Shown here piece after piece: positions 4,799 to 45,565 of a stretch of DNA of 49,190 bases (positions within the stretch are counted from its first letter, which is position 1; each line of letters starts with the position of its first letter). Source of the stretch: a virus; the IMG/VR virus record IMGVR_UViG_3300045988_172164; one strand, given 5' to 3'. The position numbers and the translations under genes are program-made. The notes beneath the pieces are model-generated. The model ran no database searches. It worked only from the letters and a program-made list of their open reading frames with translations, and had not been told where the DNA came from.

Positions 4799-4885
4799 AT
4801 TCTCGCATGATTTTTCTATTTTGATTATAATATCTTAAGGACAATATCTCGAAATGATTAGAAATTACGAGAATAATGCGAGAAT
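4799..4885. promoter_or_regulatory. 9-bp inverted pair ATTCTCGCA / TGCGAGAAT (GCGAGAAT boxes) separated by 69 nt
   Basis: 4799..4807 is the exact reverse complement of 4877..4885. Confidence 0.6.
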
Positions 4886-6676: not shown

Positions 6677-7465
6677 TTATTTTAATAATGCTTCTCTAAT
6701 AACTATGTAGGCTTCTCTCGACACTGGCACATTAGGAAGAATACCAGTTTGTAGTTGTTGCTGTTCAGGCAGGTTCAGTTGCATTTGACCTTTGCCGAAT
6801 ATACGGTCCCAAAGCTTCTCAACTGTTTCTATATTGCCAAGTTTCATATCCTCTATAAGGCGCTTAATAACAGTTTTTATTACAACTGGTATTTTCTTGT
6901 TATTCATGAGAGCCTGAAGCTGACTTTCATTACAAGTCAATAAACACGCCAATAAATTAGCTGTATCTTGTTTTGAGAGCTGAACACTTAGATTTATATT
7001 GAGGCTAGTAAGTAGCTTAGTTATCTCAGGTCTTGTTGCTCCTTGAAGCTGAAGAAGCTGAGTTGTTTTGCCTGAGTATGTACCGCCTCTTTGAGCAATC
7101 TCAACTGGGTCAAGCGGAGTTACAGTTTGAGCCTCAATTGCTTCAATTGTTTCAATGTTTTTCTTATGTTCGGCCATTTTTTGAATTTGGGTTGTGGTCG
7201 ACAAGTCTTCTGCCTCATCTTGCGACAGTCCAAGCTCTTCTGCAAGGCTCTGTTTTTCTTCAATCTTTGCTTTTTCTCTGGCTAAGCGGCATTTCTCTAT
7301 ATATTTTATGCGCGCGAGCTCCTTTGCGTCCTTTTTAGCTTTGATAGATGCGGCCTCTTTAGCTATAGAAGCTTGAGTTGATGCAGAAGGACGATTAAGG
7401 CTTGGAGCCTGGGTCCTTGTTGGAAGTATAGAGCTAAGTTGCTCTTCTATTTTATTCTGTTTCAT
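6677..7465 (-). CDS. possible terminase small subunit / DNA-packaging accessory protein
   Basis: 262 aa, immediately upstream of terL, with a charged coiled-coil N-terminal half. The call rests on position only. Confidence 0.35.
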   Translation of the reverse strand: MKQNKIEEQLSSILPTRTQAPSLNRPSASTQASIAKEAASIKAKKDAKELARIKYIEKCRLAREKAKIEEKQSLAEELGLSQDEAEDLSTTTQIQKMAEHKKNIETIEAIEAQTVTPLDPVEIAQRGGTYSGKTTQLLQLQGATRPEITKLLTSLNINLSVQLSKQDTANLLACLLTCNESQLQALMNNKKIPVVIKTVIKRLIEDMKLGNIETVEKLWDRIFGKGQMQLNLPEQQQLQTGILPNVPVSREAYIVIREALLK

Positions 7466-8231
7466 ATTCTTTATTTAATCTATCTGTTATTTCTTTTTGC
7501 TTTTTTACTATTGCTTCTATATTTGCTTTTTTTGTAGCCTTAGCTTTTAATACTTCTTCAGCTTTTTTCCTACCTGCTGGAGTATTCTCTATAGCATCGA
7601 CTTTTTCGTAAGACCATAAAAATCCAGCCGCTGACTTTATATGGCCATTACAACACATGTTTATATTAGTTGCACTTATGTTTACAGCTTGTGCAGCTTC
7701 TTTTACGGAATTATATTCAGATATAAAAATTCCTGTCAGCATATCATACTTATATACTGGTCTTGATACTCTACCTCTGCGCTGCGGCTTACAGAACTGA
7801 GCCCATTTTTTATTGTTGGCTGTTACGTTATTTATCAAAGCATTATATAGGCAAAAAGCATAAGGCTTTTCTATTGAATTATTTACGAGCAGCAAAAAAT
7901 TGTAGCCCATTGGGTAATACGTTTTATTACTACTTATGAGGTTGTATTTAGCGCGCATTATTTCTTCATAATTGCCTTCAAACTTATTTTTTACCTCTAC
8001 AGTTATATATTCGCTGTTGATAAATGCTTGTCTCAGGTCTAAACCTTCTACTCTGTCGCTCATTATTTTCTGTACAAGTTTCTCTATTCCTTCGGCCACA
8101 GTCCATTCAAAGGTATGGCAAACCATAAGTTTGCTGTCATACTCGAATTCAACTGTAAAAACAGCCCAATTCATAGATAGGGTGCTTGCTGCTCCCACTA
8201 TATCTACCTTTATGCCACTTATTTCTACCAT
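7452..8231 (-). CDS. NUMOD1-type helix-turn-helix DNA-binding protein (no recognisable nuclease motif)
   Basis: VYKYDMLTGIFISEYNSVKEAAQAVNISATNINMCCNGHIKSAAGFLWSYE matches the NUMOD1 module seen in homing-endonuclease DNA-binding tails. It is the first gene after the promoter at 8247..8268. Confidence 0.55.
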   Translation of the reverse strand: MVEISGIKVDIVGAASTLSMNWAVFTVEFEYDSKLMVCHTFEWTVAEGIEKLVQKIMSDRVEGLDLRQAFINSEYITVEVKNKFEGNYEEIMRAKYNLISSNKTYYPMGYNFLLLVNNSIEKPYAFCLYNALINNVTANNKKWAQFCKPQRRGRVSRPVYKYDMLTGIFISEYNSVKEAAQAVNISATNINMCCNGHIKSAAGFLWSYEKVDAIENTPAGRKKAEEVLKAKATKKANIEAIVKKQKEITDRLNKEYETE

Positions 8232-8246
8232 AATTATTGTTTTTTA

Positions 8247-8268
8247 TTATTTTCGATATGCAAATATA
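8247..8268 (-). promoter_or_regulatory. promoter core TATATTTGCATATCGAAAATAA, 22 nt identical to 30556..30577
   Basis: The -7 box TATATTTG is at 8268..8261 on the minus strand. The identical 22-mer precedes the replication operon. Confidence 0.6.
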
Positions 8269-8291
8269 CTATATTTTTTCAAACTATAAAA

Positions 8292-8319
8292 ATTCTCGCA
8301 GCATTTTTTTTGCGAGAAT
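8292..8319. promoter_or_regulatory. hairpin / inverted GCGAGAAT boxes (ATTCTCGCA-N10-TGCGAGAAT)
   Basis: 9-bp perfect inverted repeat with a T-rich loop. A third copy of the box lies at 8329..8336. Confidence 0.6.
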
Positions 8320-8340
8320 GCAATTTTTGCGAGAATAGTT

Positions 8341-8626
8341 CCGTAACTGATTGATTTTCAACGTAAACAATGAGCGAGAATCGTAACTGATTGATAGTCA
8401 ATGAGTAAACAATGGAAACAATGGGAACAATGCTCTATATTCCTCTACCAAGTTACAATTAGTTGAATATATAATTATTCGTATTAAGTCTATAATAATA
8501 TATCTCAAAAATAAAAGATTTATATTTTTATTGTTTACATTGTTTATAAGTGGTCTATCTTATTGAAAATCAATTAGTTACGCGATAAACAATGATTGTT
8601 TACAATCGTTTCTCATTGTTTCTACC
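8341..8626. repeat. iteron/palindrome cassette A (AAACAATG / ATTGTTT repeats plus GTAACTGATTGAT arms around an AT-rich core)
   Basis: TAAACAATG occurs at 8364. TAAACAATGGAAACAATGGGAACAATG is at 8406..8432, and the inverted ATTGTTTACATTGTTTA at 8530..8546. The palindrome TAAACAATGATTGTTTA starts at 8586. GTAACTGATTGAT occurs twice, with an inverted copy ATCAATTAGTTAC. Confidence 0.8.
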
Positions 8627-8692
8627 ACTTTGCGAGAATGCCTGAAAAGAACGCTTTTGCGATTTTTGACTTGTAGCCACTTTGCGAGAATG
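8625..8692 (+). promoter_or_regulatory. two perfect 16-nt direct repeats CCACTTTGCGAGAATG, 52 bp apart
   Basis: 8625..8640 and 8677..8692 are identical. Each contains the GCGAGAAT box. Confidence 0.7.
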
Positions 8693-8740
8693 GAGACTGA
8701 ACTTTCAAAATTTTTCTGGATATTTGGATGAGTACCAGAA

Positions 8741-9000
8741 TATATAAGGGGGAGCCCCGGTGCCGCACAGCCAGGGGCCTAAATTTTTACAGTTGTTAAC
8801 AAATACGCCTCCGTGCCTCCGTCCTCTCTCGCGCGTTCTATCGCGTTTTGGCTTGGTGGCTGAGTGTTTATATGCCTAACTGGCTCAGAGCGCGATACGG
8901 AATGAATATGGATGCGAGGGCATGGTGCCTGAGTGCTAGGTACCACATTGCTCTCTGCCTGAAACCGGCTATCAGCCAGACAGCCAAACACCAACAAAGT
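8741..9000. ncRNA. GC-rich (~53% by hand count) structured non-coding island; candidate ncRNA, strand unknown
   Basis: No convincing ORF. Nested complementary segments are present: GCCCCGG/CC(A)GGGGC, TCGCGC/GCGCGA enclosing CTGAG/CTCAG, GGCA-TGG-TGCC and GGCT-ATC-AGCC. The flanks are ~28% GC. Confidence 0.3.
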
Positions 9001-12435: not shown

Positions 12436-12624
12436 CAACTCATTTGAACGCGATAGAGGTCAAAAGAAGTGTATCTAGCTATGAATTTTCATTGAGCCTA
12501 AAATATAAGATTTGATATGTGCACAGCATTATGATTTGTGAACTTTACAGCAGCGTGGATAACTGTTAAAATTGAGGTAAAAAGTTGACTTATTCTCGCG
12601 CGTTATAGGACACTTTTATTTTGA

Positions 12625-13061: not shown

Positions 13062-13275
13062 TATAAAAAGCAATATGGAAAATATCGAACAAGAGAATAC
13101 CCAAGAGGTACAGCAAGAGAATAACTTGCTTGAAGGAGCTCAGCCTGTTGCTCTTTCAGAAGAAACAACAGAAATGCCACAAGCAGTTCAGCTAGTGCTA
13201 CCCAAAAAAGCTATAGATAATATAGCGGAAATTGAAAGGCGATATCGTGAAACAGTCGAGCGGGAGAATAGATGA
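13021..13275 (+). CDS. hypothetical acidic early protein (alternative start at 13075)
   Basis: 84-aa ORF. The internal Met at 13075 would remove the overlap with 12843..13061. Confidence 0.55.
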   Translation: MAKRITGETLNNFNIKSNMENIEQENTQEVQQENNLLEGAQPVALSEETTEMPQAVQLVLPKKAIDNIAEIERRYRETVERENR

Positions 13276-13748
13276 GCCAATTTAGACTTGATTACAGCCA
13301 AAAGCAAGAGATGCAAATTTCCAATGACGCATTTTTCTATTTGCTTGAGGAGGAAGAGCCGCTTGATGAAGAAAATCTTGAGGAAGCGCAGGAAATACTT
13401 GCAATGTTTCCTCATGGCTTCTATATAGAAGAGAATTGGAAAGCTGTTGAAGACTCAGACCTTATTGAATGCATCTTTGTTCCGTACGTTGAAGATGATA
13501 TGGACTTCGATGAATATCAAGAGCTTACAAAGTATATTCAACAGCAAATAAAATGGCTTGATGCCAATACCATTAGAGTGTGGTGGTATAATCTACAAAC
13601 AGGAGCAAGAGAATTGCGAGGCGATTTTAAGGTTTATACCAACAAATTCGGGCATAGGTGCTTTCATACAGGAAATCAAGACCAGGAATTTGAGGCAGGA
13701 AAAATGAGCCTGTATTTTCTGAAGCATTTTAAGAAGAAAAATAGCTAA
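13272..13748 (+). CDS. hypothetical acidic early protein
   Basis: 158-aa ORF with a 4-nt ATGA overlap with the previous gene. It is very acidic (LLEEEEPLDEENLEEAQE, VEDDMDFDEYQE). Confidence 0.6.
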   Translation: MSQFRLDYSQKQEMQISNDAFFYLLEEEEPLDEENLEEAQEILAMFPHGFYIEENWKAVEDSDLIECIFVPYVEDDMDFDEYQELTKYIQQQIKWLDANTIRVWWYNLQTGARELRGDFKVYTNKFGHRCFHTGNQDQEFEAGKMSLYFLKHFKKKNS

Positions 13749-13762
13749 TAGCCTAACAAGAG

Positions 13763-13805
13763 AAATATAGCGGGAGAATACATTGAGTAATTTCCCGCTA
13801 TATTT
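13763..13805. terminator. bidirectional terminator hairpin between convergent gene sets
   Basis: 13-bp perfect stem AAATATAGCGGGA / TCCCGCTATATTT with a 17-nt loop. There are A/T runs on both sides. Confidence 0.75.
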
Positions 13806-14515
13806 TATTCTTCCCGTATAACGAGAGAATAACCTAAAGCTCGCTTAGTTACAATCGATATTCTCTCATCCATTTTAAGATAATTTCGTAAATGGCATAT
13901 ATTTACATCTAAGCTGCGTTTATTCCAATAATTATTTTCTCCTCGCCATAGTCTTTGCATTATTACACTTGTTTGCAATACTTCACCCTCATACGCACAA
14001 AGCAAAGCAAGCAATTGAGTTTCTTTAGCAGGGAGCTTTATTTCAGTATTATCTATAGCAAGTGTATCATTGAGAACATCAAATCTGTAATTGCCTAATT
14101 GATAAGCATTTTGAATTGTTCTTGTCTTTATGCCACATCTTTTAAGAGCTATATTTATTTTGCGCACGAGTATTTCAAGATTATATGGCCTGATTATATA
14201 GTCATCTGCTCCTTCATCATAAGCTTCAATTATGAATTGGTATTTTGACAAATCAGAAACCATAATAACAGGTGTAGACTTATCTGCTTTGCGTAAAATT
14301 TTCAATAAAGATAAGTTGCCTATACCTACAGATTTATAATGACTTAAAATGCATAAATCGTAACCGCCGTTTTTTATCTTCCGCATTATATCTTCTCTGT
14401 TTGAAGTTATAACATCAAAACCGTAGAATATAAGGTAGTCAACCATTACGCTACAGTCTTCATCTTGATAAACAAGAATTTTTGGTTGTGATATAGCATC
14501 TTTAGAAGTTTTCAT
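13805..14515 (-). CDS. OmpR/PhoB-family response regulator (REC + winged-helix) with degenerate receiver
   Basis: The C-terminal Trans_reg_C signature is present: LPAKETQLLALLCAYEGEVLQTSVIMQRLW...RSLDVNICHLRNYL...IVTKRALGYSL. The N-terminal receiver fold has QDED, but YDLCILS sits where DLVLLD is expected, and RPY sits where KPF is expected. Confidence 0.8.
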   Translation of the reverse strand: MKTSKDAISQPKILVYQDEDCSVMVDYLIFYGFDVITSNREDIMRKIKNGGYDLCILSHYKSVGIGNLSLLKILRKADKSTPVIMVSDLSKYQFIIEAYDEGADDYIIRPYNLEILVRKINIALKRCGIKTRTIQNAYQLGNYRFDVLNDTLAIDNTEIKLPAKETQLLALLCAYEGEVLQTSVIMQRLWRGENNYWNKRSLDVNICHLRNYLKMDERISIVTKRALGYSLVIREE

Positions 14516-15372
14516 AAACCATCAATTTTATTTTTTAAGTCGTTAAACAGTATTTCGAACCAAAATGGATTTAACCTAAGCAGGTCGAAATAAGAATATA
14601 CGCCTTTACGGACTATCATAGAGGCATATTTTAATTCTTTTTCTGCTCTTACCTTATTATGCGTATTATAAGACGCAACAGCCTTATCTATGTTTATAAG
14701 ATAATTTGCATACTTTATTGACTTTTGGAGCTCTGCTTGTTCTGTATTCTGCTTGAAATAGTAAGGTATATCAGGCATTGCCCAGAATGTTTGTCCTTCG
14801 CCATATTCTTCACTTGCTCTATATAAAAAACCAGGACACTCTTTCATCGACTCTGGATATATCATTTTACAAATCCTAATCCTTCTTGGTATTAACGGAT
14901 TGATAAGAGTTGCTAATCTTTTATTTATATAAGTTGCATATTTCTCTACCATCCTAGTATGCTCAGCAGTAAGTAAAGTTATAAGCAACTTAAGATTATC
15001 ATTTCCTATAGGGTCACTAAGCCGTAAATAATCCTGATTAAAAGCCATTCGCTGTATGGTAATTCTATCTTCTTTAAGCTTTCTACGCTTTGTCTCTCGA
15101 GTTCTTTGCGCTTTTTTATAGGCTTCAATAATAGCAGGCTTACTGAAGAAATACTTACCGAATTTTCGCCAAGCATCGTCTCCATAGTAAGCCTCTATCA
15201 TTGCATTTTCTTCTGACTCAGATAATTCAGTATGCTCTTCTTCAAGTTCTATCTTTTCAATAGCTTCGTTTTGAGCTTCCTCAATTTCTTCATCATCGCC
15301 TTTTATTTCGCTGAGAAACTCAAGATATTCCTTATCTGTTAAGTCACCATATCTTTCTTCAATGTTTTCCAT
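14512..15372 (-). CDS. hypothetical protein (acidic N-terminus)
   Basis: 286-aa ORF with a 4-nt overlap with the downstream regulator gene. Confidence 0.6.
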   Translation of the reverse strand: MENIEERYGDLTDKEYLEFLSEIKGDDEEIEEAQNEAIEKIELEEEHTELSESEENAMIEAYYGDDAWRKFGKYFFSKPAIIEAYKKAQRTRETKRRKLKEDRITIQRMAFNQDYLRLSDPIGNDNLKLLITLLTAEHTRMVEKYATYINKRLATLINPLIPRRIRICKMIYPESMKECPGFLYRASEEYGEGQTFWAMPDIPYYFKQNTEQAELQKSIKYANYLINIDKAVASYNTHNKVRAEKELKYASMIVRKGVYSYFDLLRLNPFWFEILFNDLKNKIDGL

Positions 15373-15544: not shown

Positions 15545-15918
15545 ATTTTTTTTACACTGATTGTTGATTTATTATCTCCCTTATTTGTTCCTTCATCTTC
15601 AGCTTGTTTTAGTTCAACACAGGTTCTATGAAAAGCTTCATCGCCTATTCCTTTAATAAAGGTTCTAAGCACAAAAGGATATTCACTCGTATCTATAGTT
15701 TTACCAACTACTTCAGCATAGAGAGCTGCAAGAACTTTAGGCTCAAACACTTTCTTTTCCTGAAGTCTATCTATAGGACCTCTTTTGAATTGAACACCTG
15801 GATGCTCATACGTTATCTTCGTACGAGTTAGTAATAAATCTTTAATCAAAGCCCCAATATGCTTTTCAAACTGAGGCATTTGTATCACATCAATTACCTT
15901 TAAGTCTGCTACTTTCAT
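15541..15918 (-). CDS. hypothetical protein
   Basis: 125-aa ORF within the operon. Confidence 0.55.
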   Translation of the reverse strand: MKVADLKVIDVIQMPQFEKHIGALIKDLLLTRTKITYEHPGVQFKRGPIDRLQEKKVFEPKVLAALYAEVVGKTIDTSEYPFVLRTFIKGIGDEAFHRTCVELKQAEDEGTNKGDNKSTISVKKI

Positions 15919-16600
15919 TTTCCAGTTTTTTAAGTTGTTCTTTATAGAAGTTTTCTTTCATATCCCAATGCCTCTCGTATATATGGAGGTCATGAGCAAA
16001 GTGGTAATATGTACCTATAGGCAAACCAAGTTCATCAGCTACTAACTGTTGAAGCTTAGTCCAGCAATACTGGTCATTGCAAAAGCCATAAACCAAATCA
16101 TTGCTTCGCATAGTTACACACATATCAAGAGTTTCGATGCCCGGCTTAATATCAAAGCCTACAGACAAAGTGCAAGGAGTATCATATTTATAATCATCCT
16201 TCTCTTTGCCATCAAAGATTGTAAACCAAGCTTGGCGAGTGTCTTTATTTTCTTTGAGCTGCTCAATGCACTTTGCTAGTTGCTTATTGCGCATCCATTG
16301 CCAACCATAGTTTGAATTGACTATGTTATCGCCTCCATGCATTTTATCCCATATAGGAGCAAACTTCTTAATCTCTGCTACGCTTCTATTGCCTGACATA
16401 TACCAGGCATATTCGCGTTCAGCATATCGTTTGTTGAATTTGCGCCATTCTGTTGTTATAATGCGCTGCTGAGGATTACGTAGATAAAAGCCAACATTGT
16501 AAACAGCCTTTGTTCCAACATTAGTTTTTATCCCTTGGCCTATAATAAAGTCGTATAGGTCCTCAAAAGCCTCAGTTGCATTTTTATATATTATGTTCAT
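15890..16600 (-). CDS. deoxycytidylate 5-hydroxymethyltransferase-like enzyme (T4 gp42 branch of thymidylate synthase superfamily)
   Basis: Its sequence blocks match the T4 gp42 sequence as I recall it: EREYAWYMS, NSNYGWQWM, DTPCTLS (catalytic Cys), MRSNDLVYGFCNDQYCW and HDLHIYERHW. Asp occupies the base-specificity position (CND, versus RND in gp42 and FNI in ThyA). Confidence 0.75.
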   Translation of the reverse strand: MNIIYKNATEAFEDLYDFIIGQGIKTNVGTKAVYNVGFYLRNPQQRIITTEWRKFNKRYAEREYAWYMSGNRSVAEIKKFAPIWDKMHGGDNIVNSNYGWQWMRNKQLAKCIEQLKENKDTRQAWFTIFDGKEKDDYKYDTPCTLSVGFDIKPGIETLDMCVTMRSNDLVYGFCNDQYCWTKLQQLVADELGLPIGTYYHFAHDLHIYERHWDMKENFYKEQLKKLENESSRLKGN

Positions 16601-17233: not shown

Positions 17234-17320
17234 TATTCTCATGCGCTCTAGAGCCCATGCGTTTTTCTGAATATATTTCTTTTGTTTCATACTTTGCACG
17301 TGATATTACGCATGAGAATA
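17234..17320. promoter_or_regulatory. 12-bp perfect inverted repeat TATTCTCATGCG / CGCATGAGAATA bracketing a -7-like box
   Basis: 17234..17245 is the reverse complement of 17309..17320. TATATTCA (minus strand, 17275..17268) lies between them. The half-site resembles the ATTCTCGCATG box at 4799. Confidence 0.55.
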
Positions 17321-17338: not shown

Positions 17339-17833
17339 TTAATAACTTCCAGTCGAGCCCAGAGCTCCATCACCTCTTTCAGAGGAACGGCTGAAAAGCT
17401 CTGCTTCAGGTACTTCTTCAAGTCCTTCATAAGACACGGGCACAAGAATAAACTGCGCTATCTTCATACCTGGTTTAATATGAACTTTGGCTCTACCAAC
17501 ATTTACAACATGGATATGTATTTCTCCCTGATAGTCTTCATCAACAATTTTGGCACCGAGTATAACAATACTTTCAAATGCCTCTGCCTTTGGTGTTCTA
17601 CCAACTCCAAGGCATGCCCATTTAGAAGTTACTACACCGGATTTGTCAGCGGCCATAAGCATATAGCCCTCGGGAATTTCCATCTTAATACCAGACGGTA
17701 TAAGAACATCAGTTCCTGGATTGACTATAAAGCCTTTGTTACCGCCAAAATTTGGAACGAAGAAATCAATTCCAGCAGCTTTACCAGTTCCACGAACTGG
17801 AGACTTTACATTTCTTATTTTGCAGAATTTCAT
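17339..17833 (-). CDS. dut: dUTPase-family trimeric dNTP pyrophosphatase (dUTPase or dCTPase)
   Basis: The five dUTPase motifs are recognisable: AAGIDFF, IPSG, GAKIVDEDYQGEI, GMKIAQ and RGDGALGSTG. The start is placed at MKFCKIRN (17833), which aligns with the Dut N-terminus. The upstream 36 codons were judged spurious. Confidence 0.8.
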   Translation of the reverse strand: MKFCKIRNVKSPVRGTGKAAGIDFFVPNFGGNKGFIVNPGTDVLIPSGIKMEIPEGYMLMAADKSGVVTSKWACLGVGRTPKAEAFESIVILGAKIVDEDYQGEIHIHVVNVGRAKVHIKPGMKIAQFILVPVSYEGLEEVPEAELFSRSSERGDGALGSTGSY

Positions 17834-17978
17834 ATTACTTCTTTTTATTACTTGGTTTTTCTTTGTAGCCACTTGCGTAAATGGCTCTTGCTTGTTTCTC
17901 TGCTTGAGCTTTGGTAGGATAAACCTTACCATGAGTACCAAATTGGTAACCTCCTTTTACTTTATGTACTGGCATACT

Positions 17979-18371: not shown

Positions 18372-19193
18372 TTACATTAAATCGTCATTGAATAAAGTTG
18401 GTTGTTCTGCTGGAGCTTTAGGAGCTTTTATGTCTCCGGGTTTGCGCTTCAATACCCAAAGAGTGTTGCGCGCCACATCAGGGAACATAGGAGCCATGAT
18501 ATTGGCAATGAGGTTTGAGTCATAATAGCTCTTAAGAGCCTCGAACATCTTTTTCTGCCAATCATTCATGAGAGGCTTGTAGTCCTTTATAGAAGCAAAT
18601 GTGCCAAACTTCTTTACAATAGTAAAGTGTTGAGACAGTATAGCTTCAAGCTCCCAATGGTCAAACTCTTGTACATCGACCCCGCGGCCATCACCAGAGT
18701 CATAGGTATGATTACCTGCTGCTCCTACTTCTGGGTCATAGTTAGGAGTTGAAAGGTAATAAGTAGCATTGTTATTGCCACACGCCTTGAAGTTCTCAAG
18801 AAATACATGAGCATTCTGTTTTCCTACATGCTCAAGCACCTCAAAGGTACATACCTTATCAGCATTGAATTTGCTGAAGTCCAAGTCATGTTTTACAAGG
18901 TCAGCTACATAGAAATGAGCCCAAGGCACATCCTGATATTTCTCGGCTGCTTCATTGATAGTCTTTTCACGAATATCAATGCCAATATACTCTTTCTGCT
19001 TGAACTTGTTTCGATACAATACTTCAAGCAAGTTAGCTGCTCCACAACCAAAGTCTACGATTGACTCACCGATTTTTGCTTCTTTGAGAATGTGCGTCCA
19101 ACGCAAGTAATGCGCAAACTGATCTCTGTGGAATACGTGACGCTCAAAGGCCTGGTCTGGTCTGAGGTCTGTTGTGTTATACACTTTTGCCAT
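18372..19193 (-). CDS. class I SAM-dependent methyltransferase (substrate unknown)
   Basis: Motif I is VDFGCGAANLLEVL, followed by the acidic post-I residue in IGIDI, and then FEVLEHV. I recognised no DNA-MTase motif IV (DPPY or PC). Confidence 0.7.
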   Translation of the reverse strand: MAKVYNTTDLRPDQAFERHVFHRDQFAHYLRWTHILKEAKIGESIVDFGCGAANLLEVLYRNKFKQKEYIGIDIREKTINEAAEKYQDVPWAHFYVADLVKHDLDFSKFNADKVCTFEVLEHVGKQNAHVFLENFKACGNNNATYYLSTPNYDPEVGAAGNHTYDSGDGRGVDVQEFDHWELEAILSQHFTIVKKFGTFASIKDYKPLMNDWQKKMFEALKSYYDSNLIANIMAPMFPDVARNTLWVLKRKPGDIKAPKAPAEQPTLFNDDLM

Positions 19194-20867: not shown

Positions 20868-22310
20868 CTACATGAATTTTTTATATTTGTCAATTTTTGC
20901 TTTAATACTATCCATAAGAGCATTCTGCTTTCTGTCTTTTGCTTTAAGTGCTCTGATAACGTCTTCATCATGAGTGCCTTGCAATATCAAGTGGTTAATT
21001 ACTACATGATTTTGTTGACCTTGACGGTATAATCGAGCATTGAATTGTTGATACAGCTCTAAGCTCCATGTCTGTCCAAACCAAACTATTATGCTGCCTC
21101 CTGCTTGAAGATTAAGTCCATGGCCTGCTGATGCCGGATGCGCGAGCATAACTTGTATTTTGCCTGCATTCCAGTCTTCAATATCTTTATTGGTTTTAAG
21201 CTCTCTTGGCTTATATGCTTTAAGATGCTTCATTATTCTATCGCGGTCAAATTGATAAGTCCATGCAACTAATACAGATTGGCCATTTGCATCCTCGATT
21301 ATTTCCTTAAGAGCATCTAGCTTTATATCATGAATTGGAAACACGTTTCTTTCTTCATCGTATATTGCACCATTGGCAAATTGTAATAGTTTATTCGAAA
21401 GAGCTGCTGCATTAACAACATTAACTTCAACAGGCTTTTCTACCATTACAGAATTGCCATTTTCATCCTCTTCTTCTACCGTCTCAACAGTATTTATGAG
21501 GTCAAGCACTTTGTTCTTTTCGAAGTCATCATATTGCTTTTTTAAGTCATCAGGCATCCTAAGCTTTATATAGTTATCTGTCCTGAATGGCATTTCAAGA
21601 TAATCATCAGCTTTCATGCTTATGCAAATATCCTCTATTTTCTTATGAATGAGCTTCTCTGAGTCATCCATAAGATTATAAGAATAGACAACATGCCCAT
21701 TAGTTTGACCTGGCCGGAAATATCTTTTTCTGTATCTGGATATTGTCTTTTCAAGGCGCTCGCCTCTATCCATAAGGTATATTTGAGGCCACAAGTCAAT
21801 AAGTCCATTAGGTGCCGGAGTGCCAGTTAGTCCAACTAAGCGCTTAAGATAAGGTCTTGCTCCACGCAAAGCCTTAAAACGTTCAGACTTATAAGACTTA
21901 AAGCTGCTAAGCTCATCAACTACTACCATATCAAATGGCAATTTACCTCCGCCATACATAGCACATAGCCATGCAACATTATCTCTTGATATAATATAGA
22001 CATCAGCTTTTGTTTCTGTTATAGCATGTATACGCTGTTTCTGAGTGCCAATGATTTTTGAAAAGCGCAAATGCTTTAAGTGGTCCCACTTTTCAGCTTC
22101 TTCTTGCCATACAGACTCAGCAACTCTTTTTGGCGCTATGACTAATACTGAATTTATTTCCAGATAGTCAAACATCAAATAGTTTATAGCAGTAAGAGTT
22201 GATACCGTTTTGCCAAGCCCGAGGTCAAGAAATACACCACAGTATGGATGAGTAATTATGAACTCTACTGTTGCTCGCTGATAGCCATGCATGTTTTTTT
22301 CTGTTAGCAT
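20868..22310 (-). CDS. SNF2-family DNA-dependent ATPase/helicase
   Basis: Motif I is LGLGKT, motif II is VVVDELS, and motif VI-like is RLYRQGQ. Confidence 0.85.
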   Translation of the reverse strand: MLTEKNMHGYQRATVEFIITHPYCGVFLDLGLGKTVSTLTAINYLMFDYLEINSVLVIAPKRVAESVWQEEAEKWDHLKHLRFSKIIGTQKQRIHAITETKADVYIISRDNVAWLCAMYGGGKLPFDMVVVDELSSFKSYKSERFKALRGARPYLKRLVGLTGTPAPNGLIDLWPQIYLMDRGERLEKTISRYRKRYFRPGQTNGHVVYSYNLMDDSEKLIHKKIEDICISMKADDYLEMPFRTDNYIKLRMPDDLKKQYDDFEKNKVLDLINTVETVEEEDENGNSVMVEKPVEVNVVNAAALSNKLLQFANGAIYDEERNVFPIHDIKLDALKEIIEDANGQSVLVAWTYQFDRDRIMKHLKAYKPRELKTNKDIEDWNAGKIQVMLAHPASAGHGLNLQAGGSIIVWFGQTWSLELYQQFNARLYRQGQQNHVVINHLILQGTHDEDVIRALKAKDRKQNALMDSIKAKIDKYKKFM

Positions 22311-22744
22311 TTTGAAAACCTCCCATCTTTACAATGAAGTTTTGCATGCTCAGCTTGCGAACTTAAAACTTCTAAGTTATCAATAGAGTTATTTCTAGGA
22401 TTGCCGTCTTTATGGTGTACTACTTCACCTTTCTTAAGTGGTCTTCCTATTACTTCTTCCGCTAGTATTCTATGTGCATGAGTTCCAAATATCTTAGGAT
22501 AACTGTGCTCTTTTCCAGTATTATTCCTAAGATGACCTTCTCTAACAGCTAACCTTGTTTCAAAGTTATCCATTCTAGTAGGATTTAAGTCCTCATTCAT
22601 CTTAGTCATTTTTATGCTTAAATGCTCTTTAGCACAAGTTCTGCTGCAAAAGAAATGAGTAATGCCAGGCTTTATCATACTTTTATATCGTATGAATTGC
22701 TTTCCGCATTTTTCACAAGCTAATAATATCTTTTCGCCTCTCAT
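22304..22744 (-). CDS. HNH homing endonuclease with N-terminal zinc ribbon
   Basis: VVHHKDGNPRNNSIDNLEVLSSQAEHAKLH, plus CEKCGKQF...CSRTC. Confidence 0.85.
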   Translation of the reverse strand: MRGEKILLACEKCGKQFIRYKSMIKPGITHFFCSRTCAKEHLSIKMTKMNEDLNPTRMDNFETRLAVREGHLRNNTGKEHSYPKIFGTHAHRILAEEVIGRPLKKGEVVHHKDGNPRNNSIDNLEVLSSQAEHAKLHCKDGRFSKC

Positions 22745-27615: not shown

Positions 27616-27644
27616 TATTTCTTAATTTGATATTATAAAATTAG

Positions 27645-27725
27645 GAGTATAGGCGGGACTCGAACCCGCATAACAGGCACACAAACCAATGGTGCTCTGT
27701 GGTTTTACCATTAAACTACTATACT
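27645..27725 (-). tRNA. tRNA-like gene with canonical acceptor, D and T arms but a 28-nt anticodon arm (anticodon not assignable)
   Basis: The minus strand reads AGTATAG-TA-GTTT-AATGGTA-AAAC-C-[ACAGAGCACCATTGGTTTGTGTGCCTGT]-TAT-GCGGG-TTCGAGT-CCCGC-CTATACT-C. U8, A14, GG18/19 and TTCGA are present. The bracketed arm folds as ACAG(A)GCAC / GTGC-CTGT with the 11-nt loop CATTGGTTTGT. Confidence 0.6.
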
Positions 27726-30532: not shown

Positions 30533-30555
30533 ATTTCTGGTTGAATTTTATTATC

Positions 30556-30577
30556 TTATTTTCGATATGCAAATATA
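30556..30577 (-). promoter_or_regulatory. promoter core TATATTTGCATATCGAAAATAA, 22 nt identical to 8247..8268
   Basis: The identity was read directly. A TCGAGAAT box lies just upstream at 30584..30591. Confidence 0.6.
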
Positions 30578-30694
30578 CAAATTATTCTCGAAAGAAAAAA
30601 ATTTTTCCTATATTTTTTGAGAATTTTCTTGTTAAAAAACATTAAACAGCAATTTTGCATTTCCGGCGCTGCAATTCTATATAAATAAAGGCTG

Positions 30695-30909
30695 TAAACA
30701 ATGGAAACAATAGAAACAAAGCCTCGTATATTTCTAACCTAATTTCTTAAATTCCGATTAACTCTATGGTTAATCAATATCTAGATTAGCGTAATATAAA
30801 AGATTTATATTTCTATTGTTTACATTGTTTACAGCATATCTAAGTGATTGATTTTGAGCACTTTAGAGCATAAACAATGGATTGTTTCTATTGTTTACCA
30901 TCGTTTACC
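30695..30909. repeat. iteron/palindrome cassette B, paralog of 8341..8626
   Basis: TAAACAATGGAAACAATAGAAACAAA is at 30695..30720. The near-identical 36-mer ATAAAAGATTTATATTTCTATTGTTTACATTGTTTA ends at 30831. TAAACAATGGATTGTTTCTATTGTTTACCATCGTTTACC is at 30871..30909. Confidence 0.8.
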
Positions 30910-31543
30910 GCTTTATGTATATGTATTCACAGTTCATAATTTCTGTGTTCGGGTTTTCACTTACTATATCTACTTGCCTGCTTTTAACTTTATTGGTTTT
31001 CCACAAGAAACCTAAAAAGCGCTTATACGTAACTGTCTCCACTACTTTTAATGACTCTCTATTATTGATTTGTAGCTTTACAGTATCTCGTCTTAAATCT
31101 ACACAGCCCTTTACATCTGTCCATTTAGACTTGTAATCAAAACACTTCAGCGTATCTACTTGATTTGTAGTGGCATCAATTCTTATAGAGTCTTGTAGTT
31201 TGGCAGATAAAGTGCTTATAGTTTCATACTGAGAGGTAATTATCTTCTGTAAATCAGACTTTCCTGCTTTTAGCTGTTCAATGAGCTTTAGGTCTTCACT
31301 TCTATATCGCTTATATTCCTTAAGCGTTAACTCAAGTTCAGATACTCGCACAGCATTGAGACTATCAGATACTTTATATTTCTGACTTTCAGACATTACA
31401 AACTCTTTTTCTGTAAGCAATATATCTTGATTGCTTTTGAGCCTAGCATTTTCTTCCTTTAAGCTGTGTATTTTGCTGAAGGCAAATACTAGTGCTATAA
31501 CAGCTACAGCTATTATAACTATTTTTATGATTATCTTTTTCAT
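30905..31543 (-). CDS. membrane-anchored coiled-coil protein, candidate spanin-like lysis component
   Basis: 212 aa with the N-terminal TM helix IIIKIVIIAVAVIALVFAF, followed by a coiled coil. It lies downstream of the holin and amidase. Confidence 0.4.
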   Translation of the reverse strand: MKKIIIKIVIIAVAVIALVFAFSKIHSLKEENARLKSNQDILLTEKEFVMSESQKYKVSDSLNAVRVSELELTLKEYKRYRSEDLKLIEQLKAGKSDLQKIITSQYETISTLSAKLQDSIRIDATTNQVDTLKCFDYKSKWTDVKGCVDLRRDTVKLQINNRESLKVVETVTYKRFLGFLWKTNKVKSRQVDIVSENPNTEIMNCEYIYIKR

Positions 31544-31552
31544 GCTTTAATT

Positions 31553-31570
31553 ATTCTCGCGTATTCTCGC
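31553..31570 (-). promoter_or_regulatory. two ATTCTCGC boxes in tandem with 10-bp phasing
   Basis: ATTCTCGCGTATTCTCGC lies 10 nt upstream of the ATG at 31543. Confidence 0.55.
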
Positions 31571-31604: not shown

Positions 31605-31655
31605 ATAATATAAAAGCCATTCTCGGAATAATTTCTTATATGCGAGAATGGCTTT
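31605..31655 (-). terminator. rho-independent terminator after the endolysin gene (stem contains a GCGAGAAT box)
   Basis: 13-bp perfect stem AAAGCCATTCTCG (31613..31625) / CGAGAATGGCTTT (31643..31655). It is followed on the minus strand by TTTTATATTAT. Confidence 0.7.
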
Positions 31656-31663
31656 AATCAGTT

Positions 31664-32107
31664 TTAGAGGTCTTTATACTCATGCTTTGCATCAAAGCTA
31701 GGACAAGCCTTTGCAGCAAATTCTCTGTGTCCATGTATGGTCGCATTTGGATATTTTGCTTTAAGTTCTTTGAGCAGTTTGAGCAAAGATTGCTTTTGAG
31801 CGTCAGTGCGCGTATCTTTTGGAGCTAGTTGCCCATTTGGTAAACGCTTATGAGCATCACATCCTCCAACGTAGCAAATACCAATAGAATTTGCATTCTG
31901 ACCCGAGCAATGAGCGCCAATTATACTTTCATCTCTGCCTTTATGAATAGAGCCATCGAGCTCAATTACATAATGGTAACCAATATCTTTCCAATGATTG
32001 CCATTAACATGCCAATCTCGAATAGTTTCGGTTTTGACGTCTTTTTCTTCAGGCGTTGCAGAGCAATGCACTATGAGTTTATTGATTTTTCTCATTGTCT
32101 TTGTCAT
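31664..32107 (-). CDS. N-acetylmuramoyl-L-alanine amidase (Amidase_2/PGRP-type endolysin)
   Basis: LIVHCSATPE, IGYHYVI, and GHREFAAKACPSF carrying the zinc-ligand and catalytic pattern of T7-lysozyme-like amidases. Confidence 0.85.
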   Translation of the reverse strand: MTKTMRKINKLIVHCSATPEEKDVKTETIRDWHVNGNHWKDIGYHYVIELDGSIHKGRDESIIGAHCSGQNANSIGICYVGGCDAHKRLPNGQLAPKDTRTDAQKQSLLKLLKELKAKYPNATIHGHREFAAKACPSFDAKHEYKDL

Positions 32108-32564
32108 TTAAGGCGATTATTTTTGTTATCTCATTAAGTATTTCGTGGCCTTGCTCTGCAGTGGCTGCTTGTACAATTTTCTTTACTATATCAGGCACAT
32201 CAGCTGCATGAGCCTTTTTGCGCTTACTGTTCTCCACAACAGATTTACCCTCAATGTAGATTACAGCTATAGTACACAGAATTGTAGCAAACGGTACTAT
32301 ATAGAATGATAACAAGCTTCCCAGTATATCAAACATAAGAGCGAAAAGCATTAGCCTTACATAGTCGCCTATTTTTGTAACAGTTCTACGAAAACCATGC
32401 GACATAAGTGCTTGGCCTAATGCTTTTGCTGTAGTTGTTCCACTCCAGAAGTCCACGATACTACTGACCGCCATGAAAAACCAGCAAACTAAGATTATTC
32501 CGACTCTAACTGCTATGAAAAACATGAGTGCGTCGATATTCTTGGCTTCAATGAGTTCTAGCAT
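32079..32564 (-). CDS. holin (phage_holin_4-like)
   Basis: 161 aa with several TM segments and a DFWSGTTTAKALGQALMSHGFRRTVTKI block. It lies directly upstream of the amidase. Confidence 0.65.
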   Translation of the reverse strand: MLELIEAKNIDALMFFIAVRVGIILVCWFFMAVSSIVDFWSGTTTAKALGQALMSHGFRRTVTKIGDYVRLMLFALMFDILGSLLSFYIVPFATILCTIAVIYIEGKSVVENSKRKKAHAADVPDIVKKIVQAATAEQGHEILNEITKIIALNDKDNEKNQ

Positions 32565-44519: not shown

Positions 44520-45296
44520 TTATTTCTTACGTTTATTACGTTTCAAACTCTTTGCCTCAGCTTCTGCTTGAGCTTTTATATTATCGATAGCATTATAGAA
44601 TTGAAGCACTGTCATCTTTCTAGCATCTATGCTTGTTTTTTGAGCTATAAGTAAACAAGTACTTTCAAACTGCTTATCATATTTAACCTCAGCAGACTCA
44701 CTTCCTATATACGTTTTTGGTGTATGCATATTAAGCATCATTATATCTATAGCCTCAATTTGCTCTGAGTTATCAGTATCATTTATAACTGAGTCTAATA
44801 CAAGAAGTGTTCTAGCTTTAAGCTTGTCATAAGCTTCTTTTTCCTTTGGATTTACAAAATCGCCTGGAAAGTATATTTCTAGTTCACTTGTGACTTTTTT
44901 TTTAAGCCACAAAAGAAAATCTATGACTTTAGAATGCTTAATCTCTTTAAGGTCCTGAAGTAGTTTTTTAAGCCCATCATCTGACAAATCATTAACTTCT
45001 TTTCCGTCCACACTATGTATAAGAGCAGCAAAAGCTAAATACTTTGGTGATATTTCACTGTTTACCATGTAGATATTCTGCCGCATATTTTGCAATTCCT
45101 GCAAAGCCTTTCTATTATTATTTGATTTTATATACTTTGCTATCTTTACTATATGAGCATCAATATCATCTGCATCTGACCCAATGCCTGAGTCAATAAG
45201 CAGATATTTATTGTATTTTTGAAAATTTATGATTGGCATTTCATCTATGCTATCATAAACCCGCACAATTTTCTTATTTATAAGTAGGCTTTTCAT
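44520..45296 (-). CDS. hypothetical protein (possible tail assembly chaperone by position)
   Basis: 258 aa, directly upstream of the tape measure gene. Confidence 0.4.
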   Translation of the reverse strand: MKSLLINKKIVRVYDSIDEMPIINFQKYNKYLLIDSGIGSDADDIDAHIVKIAKYIKSNNNRKALQELQNMRQNIYMVNSEISPKYLAFAALIHSVDGKEVNDLSDDGLKKLLQDLKEIKHSKVIDFLLWLKKKVTSELEIYFPGDFVNPKEKEAYDKLKARTLLVLDSVINDTDNSEQIEAIDIMMLNMHTPKTYIGSESAEVKYDKQFESTCLLIAQKTSIDARKMTVLQFYNAIDNIKAQAEAEAKSLKRNKRKK

Positions 45297-45565
45297 ATCA
45301 AAATTCGCGTTATAGGGGTTGATATTATTGGAATAAATAAGATATTCATCTCTCTAAAGAAAATAGCGAGAATGACAGCGAGAATGAGCGACGTCCAAAA
45401 ACTTAAGCAAAAATCACAATCGAATAATTGAGAAATTAGCTTAGGTGCTTTGGCAATTATATTGTCTCTTATACCTAATTTTCCAATCAGCAATATGACG
45501 AATGCTGCTGCTAAGGCTATATATATTAAAGCTGAAAGCAATGTTATAAAATATATCGTTGACAT
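45293..45565 (-). CDS. small polytopic membrane protein inside the tail module
   Basis: 90 aa with three hydrophobic helices and a CDFCLSFW motif. Confidence 0.5.
   Translation of the reverse strand: MSTIYFITLLSALIYIALAAAFVILLIGKLGIRDNIIAKAPKLISQLFDCDFCLSFWTSLILAVILAIFFREMNILFIPIISTPITRILI

Follow-up and report, generated by a model that had tools for sequence, protein, structure and literature searches.

A phage gene whose product is built like an OmpR/PhoB-type response regulator raises two questions: whether the protein can still receive a phosphoryl signal, and on which DNA it acts. We analyzed the gene within its window, a viral sequence of 49,190 nucleotides. The genome closed on itself through a 36-bp terminal overlap (49,154 unique bp), and because its ends overlap in this way the whole genome was inspected.

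Both halves of the protein scored above the Pfam cut-offs: Response_reg (PF00072) covered residues 37-120 (35.0 bits; cut-off, 30.2) and Trans_reg_C (PF00486) covered residues 157-231 (54.8 bits; cut-off, 26.2). The AlphaFold2 (AF2) model of the monomer (mean pLDDT 85) had the two parts that characterize the OmpR/PhoB family, a CheY-like (beta-alpha)5 receiver at the N-terminus (beta1, residues 12-16; beta3, 54-57; beta4, 83-87; beta5, 105-108) followed by a winged-helix Trans_reg_C domain at the C-terminus. This agreed with the first-pass annotation, which had read a receiver fold and a winged helix in the two halves. The recognition helix comprised approximately residues 196-213 (YWNKRSLDVNICHLRNYL). 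In Foldseek searches, the full-length model matched the OmpR/PhoB regulators RpaA, KdpE, PrrA, and PmrA, DNA-bound structures among them, and it matched isolated receiver domains with TM scores of 0.87-0.89 (rmsd 1.7-1.9 A).

The receiver fold was retained, and the phosphorylation pocket was altered. In HMMER pairwise alignments with RegX3, PrrA, DrrD, and FTN_1452, the last residue of DLCILS58 fell on the acceptor Asp, R109-P-Y matched K-P-F, S87 corresponded to the Thr/Ser site, and Q17-D18 stood at the acidic pair. Because beta3, beta4, and beta5 end at residues 57, 87, and 108 in the AF2 model, Ser58, Ser87, and Arg109 occupy the canonical pocket positions. Canonical regulators have the acceptor Asp at the C-terminal end of beta3, a Mg2+-binding DD pair after beta1, a Lys after beta5, and a Thr or Ser at the end of beta4. 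Here, the acceptor was Ser58, the pair was Gln17-Asp18, and the Lys was Arg109, so the active site had lost three of its five conserved residues (acceptor, Lys, and the first acid of the pair); the beta4 site was Ser87, which was invariant. These pairwise alignments and the structure prediction, the latter a check that the first-pass annotation had proposed, gave Ser, not Asp, at the acceptor position, and the first-pass reading of Arg for the Lys of KPF held as well. In the alignments, the canonical Glu115 was Ile in this phage.

The absence of a histidine kinase, also claimed at first pass, was confirmed for the closed genome: neither HisKA nor HATPase_c was found in the 40 scanned ORFs of at least 125 aa, a set that included every ORF of at least 200 aa as well as the one that crosses the circular junction. 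Kinases of other types were not detected among these ORFs either. No cognate histidine kinase was therefore found near the gene or elsewhere in the genome, and a host kinase could still act on the protein. An Rfam scan of the whole 49-kb sequence gave one tRNA as its only match.

The regulator had 465 relatives in IMG/VR, and the family was seen only on phage contigs (approximately 50 kb). No homologue above 31% identity (the best match) was found among 185,579 GTDB genomes when alignment A1 of the family was the query. GenBank phages contained no close homologue (all <35% identity, many on host-contaminated records), and the only related isolate, Bacteroides phage BF503P2, was without the gene. 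Scans of IMG/VR with two distant members (P0125 and P0127) led back, by way of a peptide pattern in common, only to the large group at 53% identity, and a profile search based on distant members also ended in this clade (at least 52% identity). Syntenic orthologues were 40-98% identical, and the position of the locus was unchanged even in phages whose regulators were 40-62% identical. Cysteines C21, C55, C173, and C207 were conserved in the family.

Residues of the pocket varied within this family. Among 120 close homologues, position 58 was Ser in 86, Gly in 31, and Asp in 4; position 109 was Arg in 117 and Lys in 4, and Q17 was invariant. Among representatives at 50% identity, the first position of the DD pair was Gln almost throughout, the second was D, A, V, R, S, T, K, or N, and the Lys site was R, K, I, or A. 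On a neighbor-joining tree of 77 representatives, rooted with canonical RprY-like regulators (root states: D at the acceptor, K at the Lys site, and D at the second DD position), the acceptor required at least 15 changes, the Lys site at least 21, and the second DD position at least 27. The beta3-alpha3 loop was without its usual Pro and Gly. Outside these positions, S87, D104, D105, Y106, P110, E114, L116, and R126 were invariant or nearly so. Since close relatives have Gly, or even Asp and Lys, at these sites, Ser58 is not the defining lesion; judged by its residues, the whole family is one of pseudo-receivers rather than a single mutant. The regulator is probably non-phosphorylatable, a reading that the evolution of the family supports, and residual phosphorylation may occur in some members because a few close relatives (P0071 and P0074) keep both Asp58 and Lys109.

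The receiver was under strong purifying selection: across approximately 1,400 pairs, dN/dS was 0.07 in the receiver and 0.14 in the DNA-binding domain. Free change at the catalytic positions together with this selection indicates that the pseudo-receiver is functional. A captured host regulator that has lost its function and is drifting would explain the degenerate catalytic residues and a Pfam receiver score barely over the cut-off, but this explanation was effectively refuted by the selection analysis. Hundreds of phage contigs across the 40-98% identity range also carried the gene uninterrupted, with its length and location unchanged.

Signal control by the host, with a histidine kinase acting on another residue or a Ser/Thr kinase acting on Ser58 or another site, is very improbable. 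In its favor, neither Ser87 nor Tyr106, the aromatic switch residue, varies, a few relatives retain Asp58 and Lys109, and Ser58 could in principle be a Ser/Thr kinase target; in other bacteria, OmpR-family regulators are known to undergo Ser/Thr phosphorylation. However, position 58 alternates among Ser, Gly, and Asp in orthologues that are highly conserved elsewhere, and a Gly residue offers no site for phosphorylation. The loss of the first metal-binding acid across the family, the variable second acid, the degenerate beta3-alpha3 loop, and the lack of any detected phage kinase also argue against it.

A domain counts as a pseudo-receiver when it is recognized computationally as a receiver but one or more of its five conserved active-site residues are missing; in the aspartate-less subset, the acceptor Asp is missing (PMC12632262). 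With three of five residues changed, acceptor included, the phage protein falls within that subset, and its sequence makes it an atypical aspartate-less regulator of the kind known from HP1021, HP1043, and ChxR. Many atypical regulators dimerize and act without phosphorylation, and HP1043 dimerizes without it (PMC12632262); for HP1021, activity is reported to be phosphorylation-independent in the work of Schar et al. 2005 as cited in PMC8266642. HP1021 and HP1043 (HsrA) are Helicobacter pylori orphans that, like the phage regulator, combine a receiver with a winged helix, a non-canonical phosphorylation site, and no cognate kinase, and the HP1043 structure (2hqr) ranked 19 among the Foldseek matches of the phage model. 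They differ in being chromosomal, essential or global bacterial regulators, and HP1021 is a Cys-based redox switch and oriC binder. In sequence, they were not specially close to the phage protein, whose best matches were the canonical RegX3 and PrrA. ChxR of Chlamydia trachomatis is likewise an atypical OmpR/PhoB regulator without the acceptor Asp, but it is chromosomal, and its acceptor position is Glu, whereas the phage family has Ser or Gly. As cited in PMC12632262, ChxR forms constitutive homodimers and binds direct repeats, and the title of a paper cited there calls its dimer interface unique within the subfamily.

Viral proteins with receiver and/or OmpR-type DNA-binding domains have been recorded (PHROG 731; BFVD entries such as 'Response regulator [Siphoviridae sp. 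ctiV651]' and a CtrA-like protein of Roseobacter phage RDJL Phi 2). These viral proteins were at most 23-27% identical to the phage regulator, most of them are receiver-only or giant-virus kinase fusions, and PHROG 731 carries no functional label. A literature search with set phrases such as 'phage-encoded response regulator' found no paper.

The best-scoring curated family was RprY of Bacteroidota (NCBIfam NF051850; 143.7 bits vs. 88 bits for the next family), which is likely the lineage from which the phage regulator came; because the score was far under the family cut-off of 370, the phage protein is not itself an RprY. RprY is a host gene, and RprY-like representatives keep the canonical E/D-D, D, T, and K, unlike the phage gene product. 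In Porphyromonas, the partner kinase of RprY, RprX, has been lost (PMC6032018). Such an origin would fit a host-directed regulator or decoy that binds host promoters, or forms inactive heterodimers through the alpha4-beta5-alpha5 face, and so rewires a host regulon. The helix backbone NYFNxRSxDVxIxxLRKYLK is common to the phage protein and its nearest canonical representatives (EDDTYK type), and the dimer-face residues D104, D105, Y106, P110, and L116 are conserved. We consider this explanation unlikely, although it retains some weight: identity to canonical host-type regulators was only approximately 30-35%, the recognition helix has N205, C207, and H208 in place of Y, T, and K in RprY-like representatives, and the phage genome itself contains a strongly enriched, phased, promoter-associated box. 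A limited look at the literature found no published RprY binding motif for comparison.

A Bacteroidota phage had been proposed at first pass, and the context is indeed of Bacteroidota type because of a 73% DNA match to phage BF503P2, the RprY-like best family hit, and TAnnTTTG-type promoters. The ORF map likewise bore out the proposed gene order. The regulator gene was the last of the leftward replication/nucleotide operon, overlapping the ORF upstream of it, and was convergent with the plus-strand ORF 13272..13748. In related phages, too, it was always the last gene of this operon. An inverted repeat between the convergent genes likely forms a hairpin that would act as a bidirectional terminator (Table 1). 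In each of the eight related loci for which a gene map was read, the 286-aa ORF likewise lay upstream of the regulator gene. This neighbor was rejected as a hidden kinase or partner: neither Pfam nor PHROG matched it, and its AF2 model (mean pLDDT 75; C-terminal half confident) matched no PDB fold at E < 1 and showed no kinase-like fold.

The top-enriched 8-mer of the whole genome, TGCGAGAAT / GCGAGAAT, was found 14 times (1.2 expected), with 12 of the 14 GCGAGAAT copies intergenic, and it is our best candidate for the target of the regulator. Boxes lay upstream of, or within, the consensus promoter of the clade, and the promoters of this genome include those at 8266 and 30575; the packaging-operon promoter had its -7 element 23 nt downstream of the box at 8292. 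Across 216 distinct GCGAGAAT sites, 6-13% had a same-strand partner (at least 6 of 8 bases) at +/-11-12 bp, compared with no more than 2% at almost every other offset (+8 and +18 gave approximately 5%), and no inverted partner was found at short range. Many boxes were single copies. The phased repeat of a phage-specific box that the first-pass annotation had pointed out was recovered as two exact ATTCTCGC copies. In 11 regulator-carrying loci with an RSLDV-type recognition helix, GCGAGAAT was observed 89 times (7.0 expected), whereas in 11 relatives without the regulator it was observed 6 times (6.9 expected); the corresponding enrichment of TGCGAGAAT was 12.8-fold vs. 0.9-fold, a contrast confounded by phylogeny because all box-bearing carriers form one clade. 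The two most distant carriers (L287 and L288) were without the box and without a dispersed replacement motif, and their enriched k-mers were tandem arrays with 29-bp and 18-bp periods.

Table 1. Coordinates of the regulator gene, its neighbors, and the candidate control elements in the window
Feature	Position	Strand	Remarks
Regulator gene	13805..14515	-	236 aa, ATG start; OmpR/PhoB-type atypical response regulator
Pseudo-receiver domain, residues 10-126	14138..14488	-	Alignments, AF2, Foldseek, dN/dS 0.07
Winged-helix DNA-binding domain, residues 137-233	13817..14107	-	Pfam, AF2, helix comparison
Gln17 and Asp18 codons	14462..14467	-	Acidic (DD) metal-binding pair, first acid lost
Ser58 codon AGT	14342..14344	-	Phospho-acceptor position; one step from Gly (GGT), two from Asp (GAT)
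Arg109 codon AGG	14189..14191	-	Replaces the conserved Lys after beta5
286-aa ORF	14512..15372	-	Directly upstream; overlaps the regulator gene by 4 bp (ATGA)
Inverted repeat ATAGCGGGA ... TCCCGCTAT	13767-13801		Between convergent genes; read from the sequence; absent from the automated terminator scan
Boxes at 4799 and 4878	4799..4885	4799 -; 4878 +	7/8 copy at 4867 gives a tandem pair 11 bp apart
Six exact GCGAGAAT boxes	8292..8691	8292 -; 8312, 8329, 8374, 8632, 8684 +	Divergent control region
Single exact box	12592..12599	-	Intergenic, plus-strand module
Replication-operon promoter core TATTTGCATATCG	30563..30591	-	7/8 box TCGAGAAT 6 nt upstream of the -7 element
Tandem boxes, two exact ATTCTCGC copies 10 bp apart	31553..31570	-	Candidate operator; 9 nt separate its end from the downstream DUF6549 start codon (gene, 30905-31543)
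Tandem exact boxes 12 bp apart	45366..45385	+	Inside ORF 45293-45565

Several boxes were hairpin arms, one of them in a terminator-like hairpin (31616-31652), and a conserved inverted pair stood approximately 77 bp apart; in this genome both arms of that pair carried the same change, which points to base pairing rather than protein recognition. A hairpin-type box pair follows dUTPase, at 17235-17319. Other repeats were poorer candidates. The iteron-like AAACAATG repeats were rejected as the target: they do not track the regulator because their clusters also occur in three phages lacking it (L178, L182, and L184), and AAACAAT iteron clusters were likewise present in phages without the regulator. 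The TTTAACA box, named at first pass, showed weak enrichment (28 found vs. 16.6 expected) and is a weaker candidate only. The TTTAACAC motif was enriched 3.5-fold in carriers and 1.1-fold in relatives without the regulator, a weaker version of the box pattern.

The iterons bear on a further explanation, in which the protein, like HP1021 at Helicobacter oriC, would control replication initiation or a switch of replication mode, with transcription not the main target. The gene lies within the replication/nucleotide operon, HP1021 does bind oriC (PMC8266642), and the six boxes of the divergent control region are beside AAACAATG repeats that flank an AT-rich core (8365-8621), a structure of which a second copy is present at 30696-30905. 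This second region was without an exact box, however, and boxes also occurred far away, at 4799-4885, 12592, 31553-31570, and 45366. Because iteron clusters occur in relatives lacking the regulator, the phage origin works without it, and we regard a primary role at the origin as rather doubtful.

The reading that we prefer, at a probability of roughly 0.55, is that the protein is a kinase-independent transcription factor of the OmpR/PhoB family whose receiver is now an aspartate-less pseudo-receiver. It would be made from the distal end of the replication/nucleotide operon and, because it is encoded there, would accumulate only after the operon has been expressed. With the metal site, acceptor, and Lys degenerate and no kinase encoded, the receiver would act without phosphotransfer and would be kept as a structural module, most likely for dimerization through the conserved alpha4-beta5-alpha5 face; dimerization is assumed from the conserved residues, as the model is that of a monomer, and the Ile in place of Glu115 counts against it. 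OmpR/PhoB-type proteins recognize direct repeats approximately one helical turn apart as head-to-tail dimers, and a dimer of the phage protein would set its two winged helices on DNA in this arrangement. The most likely targets would be the phage's own TGCGAGAAT(R) boxes, in or beside promoters and often in tandem 11-12 bp apart. The protein could then serve as a concentration-timed switch, positive or negative, on phage transcription units, among them packaging, a lysis-associated gene, and its own operon.

In a bolder and distinctly speculative version of this transcription-factor reading, a large and uncultured clade of approximately 50-kb gut phages of Bacteroidota type would have the regulator as its master timing switch. 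Kinase-free, the protein would read TGCGAGAAT boxes by their position relative to one shared core promoter, with activity set by dosage and not by phosphorylation. Boxes placed upstream of the -33 region would turn on the packaging and late units, and boxes in or next to the spacer would turn off the early units and the replication operon to which the gene itself belongs. Control might also come from the 286-aa protein, which is always adjacent and translationally coupled; if so, pseudo-receivers would have a new mode of control.

The atypical-regulator kind itself was already known; what is new is a large, strongly conserved family, seen on phage contigs only, that probably controls transcription without a kinase. 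Several percent of all receiver domains are pseudo-receivers, and how the bacterial ones are switched has been called a mystery (PMC12632262). The phage family offers a compact natural test case, with hundreds of orthologues on small phage genomes, no kinase, and an acceptor position that toggles naturally among Asp, Gly, and Ser. Its likely targets are on the same 49-kb DNA, so that the full regulon could be read from one binding experiment. The finding would add a transcription-control element to the abundant uncultured human-gut phages related to Bacteroides phage BF503P2, in which a host signaling protein would have been repurposed by a virus as a signal-independent regulator.

The ORF at 13805..14515 (minus strand, ATG start) encodes a 236-aa protein in which both domains of an OmpR/PhoB-type regulator scored above their Pfam cut-offs: Response_reg at residues 37-120 (35.0 bits, cut-off 30.2) and Trans_reg_C at residues 157-231 (54.8 bits, cut-off 26.2). 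Because the Response_reg match began at profile position 28, the N-terminus, where the acidic pair usually lies, was left unaligned. An AlphaFold2 model built from 26 family sequences (mean pLDDT 85) placed strands beta1, beta3, beta4, and beta5 at residues 12-16, 54-57, 83-87, and 105-108, followed by the winged helix, and its Foldseek matches were full-length OmpR/PhoB regulators and also receiver domains, the latter at TM 0.87-0.89. The receiver and winged-helix architecture read by the first-pass annotation was thus confirmed. Active-site residues were placed by HMMER alignment to the solved structures RegX3, PrrA, DrrD, and FTN_1452; given the modelled strand limits, they lie at the ends of strands making up the canonical pocket. 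Both substitutions noticed earlier held: Ser58 occupies the acceptor position, directly after modelled beta3, and Arg109-Pro-Tyr aligns with the conserved Lys-Pro-Phe. The first metal-binding acid, which had gone unremarked, was also lost. The claim that the genome encodes no histidine kinase agreed with our scan, in which HisKA and HATPase_c were found in none of 40 window ORFs, including all those of at least 200 aa.

With acceptor, first acid, Lys, and kinase all missing, the protein is not a canonical two-component regulator. Its top curated NCBIfam family was the Bacteroidota regulator RprY, of which it is not a member (143.7 bits, cut-off 370). By the definitions of a 2025 review (PMC12632262), it is an atypical response regulator with an aspartate-less pseudo-receiver, matching HP1021, HP1043, and ChxR in architecture and, by analogy, probably in mechanism; in looser usage, the class also takes in GlnR and RitR.

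Across the 120 nearest clusters, position 58 was Ser (86), Gly (31), or Asp (4), position 109 was Arg (117) or Lys (4), and Gln17 was invariant. The window codon for Ser58, AGT, is a single step from Gly GGT. Farther out in the family, at least eight residue types occupied the second acidic position, and the Lys site held R, K, I, or A. Parsimony on a rough neighbor-joining tree (77 representatives, rooted with canonical relatives) gave Asp, Lys, and Asp as root states of the acceptor, Lys site, and second acid, with at least 15, 21, and 27 changes, respectively. The direction of this result is clear. Residues S87, D104, D105, Y106, P110, E114, L116, and R126 were invariant or nearly so, and dN/dS was 0.07 in the receiver and 0.14 in the DNA-binding domain (approximately 1,400 sequence pairs); this selection analysis effectively excludes a decaying relic. 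The receiver appears dead for phosphotransfer catalysis and is alive as a protein domain. In the simplest reading, phosphotransfer was lost early in the family, with the metal-site Gln, and the acceptor was free to vary afterwards. Persisting phosphorylation control, through another residue or a Ser/Thr kinase, is very improbable, as the interchange of Ser, Gly, and Asp counts against it. Judging from other atypical OmpR-family regulators (PMC12632262), the receiver fold was most likely retained for dimerization through the alpha4-beta5-alpha5 face.

A search of 5.8 billion proteins returned 420 clusters at E ≤ 1e-10; the matches listed were 59-98% identical to the regulator, many of them on contigs of 45-58 kb. 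IMG/VR held 465 relatives. Among 1.84 billion 50%-identity representatives, 35 matched at E ≤ 1e-30, nearly all with a Tyr-Gln motif after beta1, and canonical RprY-like proteins (E/D-D, D, T, and K intact) first appeared at approximately 34% identity. Descent from RprY-type proteins is part of one alternative, in which the protein would be a host-directed regulator or decoy; we consider such a host-directed role unlikely. A GTDB scan (185,579 species, one genome each) found nothing above 31% identity and, because it rests on peptide patterns, rules out close members of the family though not every distant one. The GenBank phage collection had no record of a close homolog. As far as these sequences go, the family appears only on phage contigs. 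Database labels for relatives were "response regulator [Caudoviricetes sp.]," "DNA-binding response OmpR family regulator," and "DNA-binding response regulator rprY"; PHROG 731 contains virus receiver-containing proteins annotated with unknown function, and BFVD holds a few such viral entries (15-27% identity). A literature search for fixed wordings like "phage-encoded response regulator" found no paper.

Gene maps were read for eight related loci (L001-L003 and L284-L288; members 40-62% identical), all of them syntenic phage contigs of approximately 47-57 kb. The regulator gene came last or nearly last in the replication module, following an ORF of approximately 290 aa, except that an 85-aa ORF intervened in L285; in L288, three more genes followed on the same strand. 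Bacteroides phage BF503P2 and ten IMG/VR relatives had the approximately 290-aa ORF (30-44% identity) without the regulator gene, which is therefore an addition defining one large clade. In distant relatives, the module that converges on the regulator gene carried long tandem arrays (L286 11246-11370 and 13690-14830; L287 11887-12140; L288 13895-14310) with periods of 29, 29, and 18 bp, respectively; the window had no such long arrays.

The two ends of the window overlap by 36 bp (1-36 = 49155-49190), which closes the assembly into a circle of 49,154 unique bp; a 371-aa capsid-like ORF crosses the junction. Pfam identified terminase, scaffold, family A DNA polymerase, VapE-like primase/helicase, SNF2 helicase, DUF2800 nuclease, Enc34-type single-strand-binding protein, thymidylate-synthase-like enzyme, dUTPase, methyltransferase, holin, amidase, and two HNH-type endonucleases. 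In GenBank, BF503P2, whose host is B. fragilis, was the sole phage to match at the DNA level (73%, part of the polymerase gene), and window promoters contained the Bacteroidota-type TAnnTTTG element. As previously described, the regulator gene ends the leftward replication/nucleotide operon and converges on plus-strand ORF 13272..13748 (ORF map); the inverted repeat at their junction was read as a putative hairpin. This position at the operon end would set regulator dosage. The gene overlaps by 4 bp the 286-aa ORF before it, whose product gave no match in Pfam, PHROG, or PDB fold searches. Conservation of this product extends through the entire phage group, relatives without the regulator gene (non-carriers) among them, and where a regulator gene exists, the two genes are translationally coupled.

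Elsewhere, homing-endonuclease-type genes (7452-8231 and 22304-22744, minus strand; NUMOD/I-HmuI-like, HNH_3) adjoin the terminase and helicase genes, and a terminase-region ORF of L284 (18381-20717) has an intein domain. The nucleotide module (15890-16600, 17339-17941, and 18372-19193, minus strand) encodes thymidylate-synthase-like, dUTPase/dCTP-deaminase-like, and methyltransferase proteins. Coordinates recorded together with this module were L004 34973-35779 and 37853-38533 and L284 5033-6034; the homologs in BF503P2 are annotated deoxycytidylate 5-hydroxymethyltransferase, one relative has an HMUDK_hel domain, and phages of this type may carry modified DNA bases. A tRNA-like gene (27644-27725, minus strand; Rfam tRNA, 46.4 bits) has an unusually long anticodon arm and a four-base "ccat" anticodon with no amino acid assigned by ARAGORN; it may contain an intron or be an unusual tRNA in some other way.

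GCGAGAAT exceeded its expected count more strongly than any other 8-mer of the genome (14 observed; 1.2 expected from a third-order Markov model), with 12 of 14 copies intergenic. OmpR/PhoB-type dimers use head-to-tail sites at one-turn phasing, the arrangement that direct pairs of this 8-mer show. The phased direct repeat reported at 31553-31570 was indeed present, as two copies 10 bp apart. PMC2275107 provides an 11-nt direct-repeat site as an example for this class. Across 216 distinct sites in related phages, the extended consensus was T-GCGAGAAT-R, and 6-13% of sites had a direct partner (at least 6/8 bases, same strand) at ±11-12 bp, compared with approximately 5% at +8 and +18 and ≤2% at nearly all other offsets; no inverted partner was found at short range. 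Exact boxes next to each other stood 10-12 bp apart less often than 52-56 bp apart or, as inverted pairs, approximately 77 bp apart. Box totals were 89 (7.0 expected) in 11 regulator carriers with an RSLDV-type recognition helix, 6 (6.9 expected) in 11 non-carriers, and 3 (1.1 expected) in two carriers with diverged helices, in which a search found no replacement motif. Because all phages bearing the box make up a single clade, a correlation with the regulator is expected of any clade-specific motif; TTTAACAC showed a weaker version of this correlation (3.5-fold vs. 1.1-fold). The box is a tentative candidate for the regulator's site.

The strong clade consensus promoter was ...TA-TATTTGCATATCG, and copies of the box matching at 7/8 bases sit within the promoter spacer in relatives. 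The tandem pair ends 9 nt upstream of the DUF6549 start codon, just after the holin-amidase pair; the order is lysis pair, terminator-like hairpin (31616-31652), tandem pair, and DUF6549 gene, whose product has an N-terminal hydrophobic segment and may be an additional lysis component. Some boxes are hairpin arms, a further reason for keeping the operator assignment tentative: the 31616-31652 stem comprises GCGAGAAT and a 7/8 copy, and others belong to a conserved inverted 11-nt arm pair after the dUTPase gene (17235-17319; arms approximately 77 bp apart in one reading and approximately 55-65 nt apart in another). These arms read ATTCTCATGCG / CGCATGAGAAT in the window and ATTCTCGCGCG / CGCGCGAGAAT elsewhere; the same change in both is compensatory and so favors base pairing, which suggests an RNA or DNA stem.

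Two near-duplicate regions of approximately 350 bp (8240-8625 and 30550-30910), each upstream of a leftward operon, share the promoter core TATTTGCATATCG, and each has triple AAACAATGG direct repeats (period 9) and an AT-rich core between inverted CATTGTTT clusters. Iteron-like AAACAATG repeats border the cores (8365-8621 and 30696-30905), and the regions look like origins or operator/iteron arrays. The AAACAATG repeats and similar clusters also occur in non-carriers; the repeats do not track the regulator and are the poorer candidate for its target. A role in replication through origin binding, as for HP1021, seems distinctly unlikely. Within an otherwise A+T-rich control region, a G+C-rich stretch (8740-9000) has two GCGAGAAT boxes on its upstream side and the plus-strand module on its downstream side. 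Rfam returned no match for it, and none of its ORFs was convincing; it is possibly a non-coding RNA or packaging site.

Positions of regulator residues, candidate boxes, and neighboring features (window coordinates unless a locus or residue is named).
Feature	Position	Strand	Remark
Acidic pair	Q17-D18		HMMER alignments to solved structures
Acceptor Asp position	S58, in DLCILS		HMMER alignments to solved structures
Thr/Ser site	S87		HMMER alignments to solved structures
Aromatic switch residue	Y106		HMMER alignments to solved structures
K-P-F	R109-P-Y		HMMER alignments to solved structures
Box pair	4867/4878		11 bp apart
Box pair	31553/31563		10 bp apart
Box pair	45366/45378		12 bp apart
Exact box, packaging operon	8292		23 nt upstream of -7 element
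7/8 box, replication operon	30584		6 nt upstream of -7 element
Inverted repeat, regulator gene/ORF 13272..13748 junction	13767-13801		Read from sequence; absent from terminator-scan list
286-aa protein gene	14512-15372	-	Acidic N-terminal region; helical C-terminal domain, confidently modelled
Amidase gene	31664-32107		Pfam
Holin gene	32079-32564		Pfam
Post-dUTPase arm element, relatives	L001 7306-7390; L284 7026-7101; L285 5703-5787; L286 7612-7696

We favor, with a probability of approximately 0.55, a kinase-independent OmpR-type transcription factor, probably a dimer, which would act on the phage's own promoter-associated candidate boxes. Within this composite, a functional DNA-binding regulator with a pseudo-receiver is highly probable, and TGCGAGAAT as its site is possible, if doubtful. 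The identity of the regulator is unsurprising to a specialist. Its family, seen in these searches on phage contigs only, belongs to a known atypical class, bears an unusually clear evolutionary mark of lost phosphotransfer, and would be a convenient system for the question of pseudo-receiver control.
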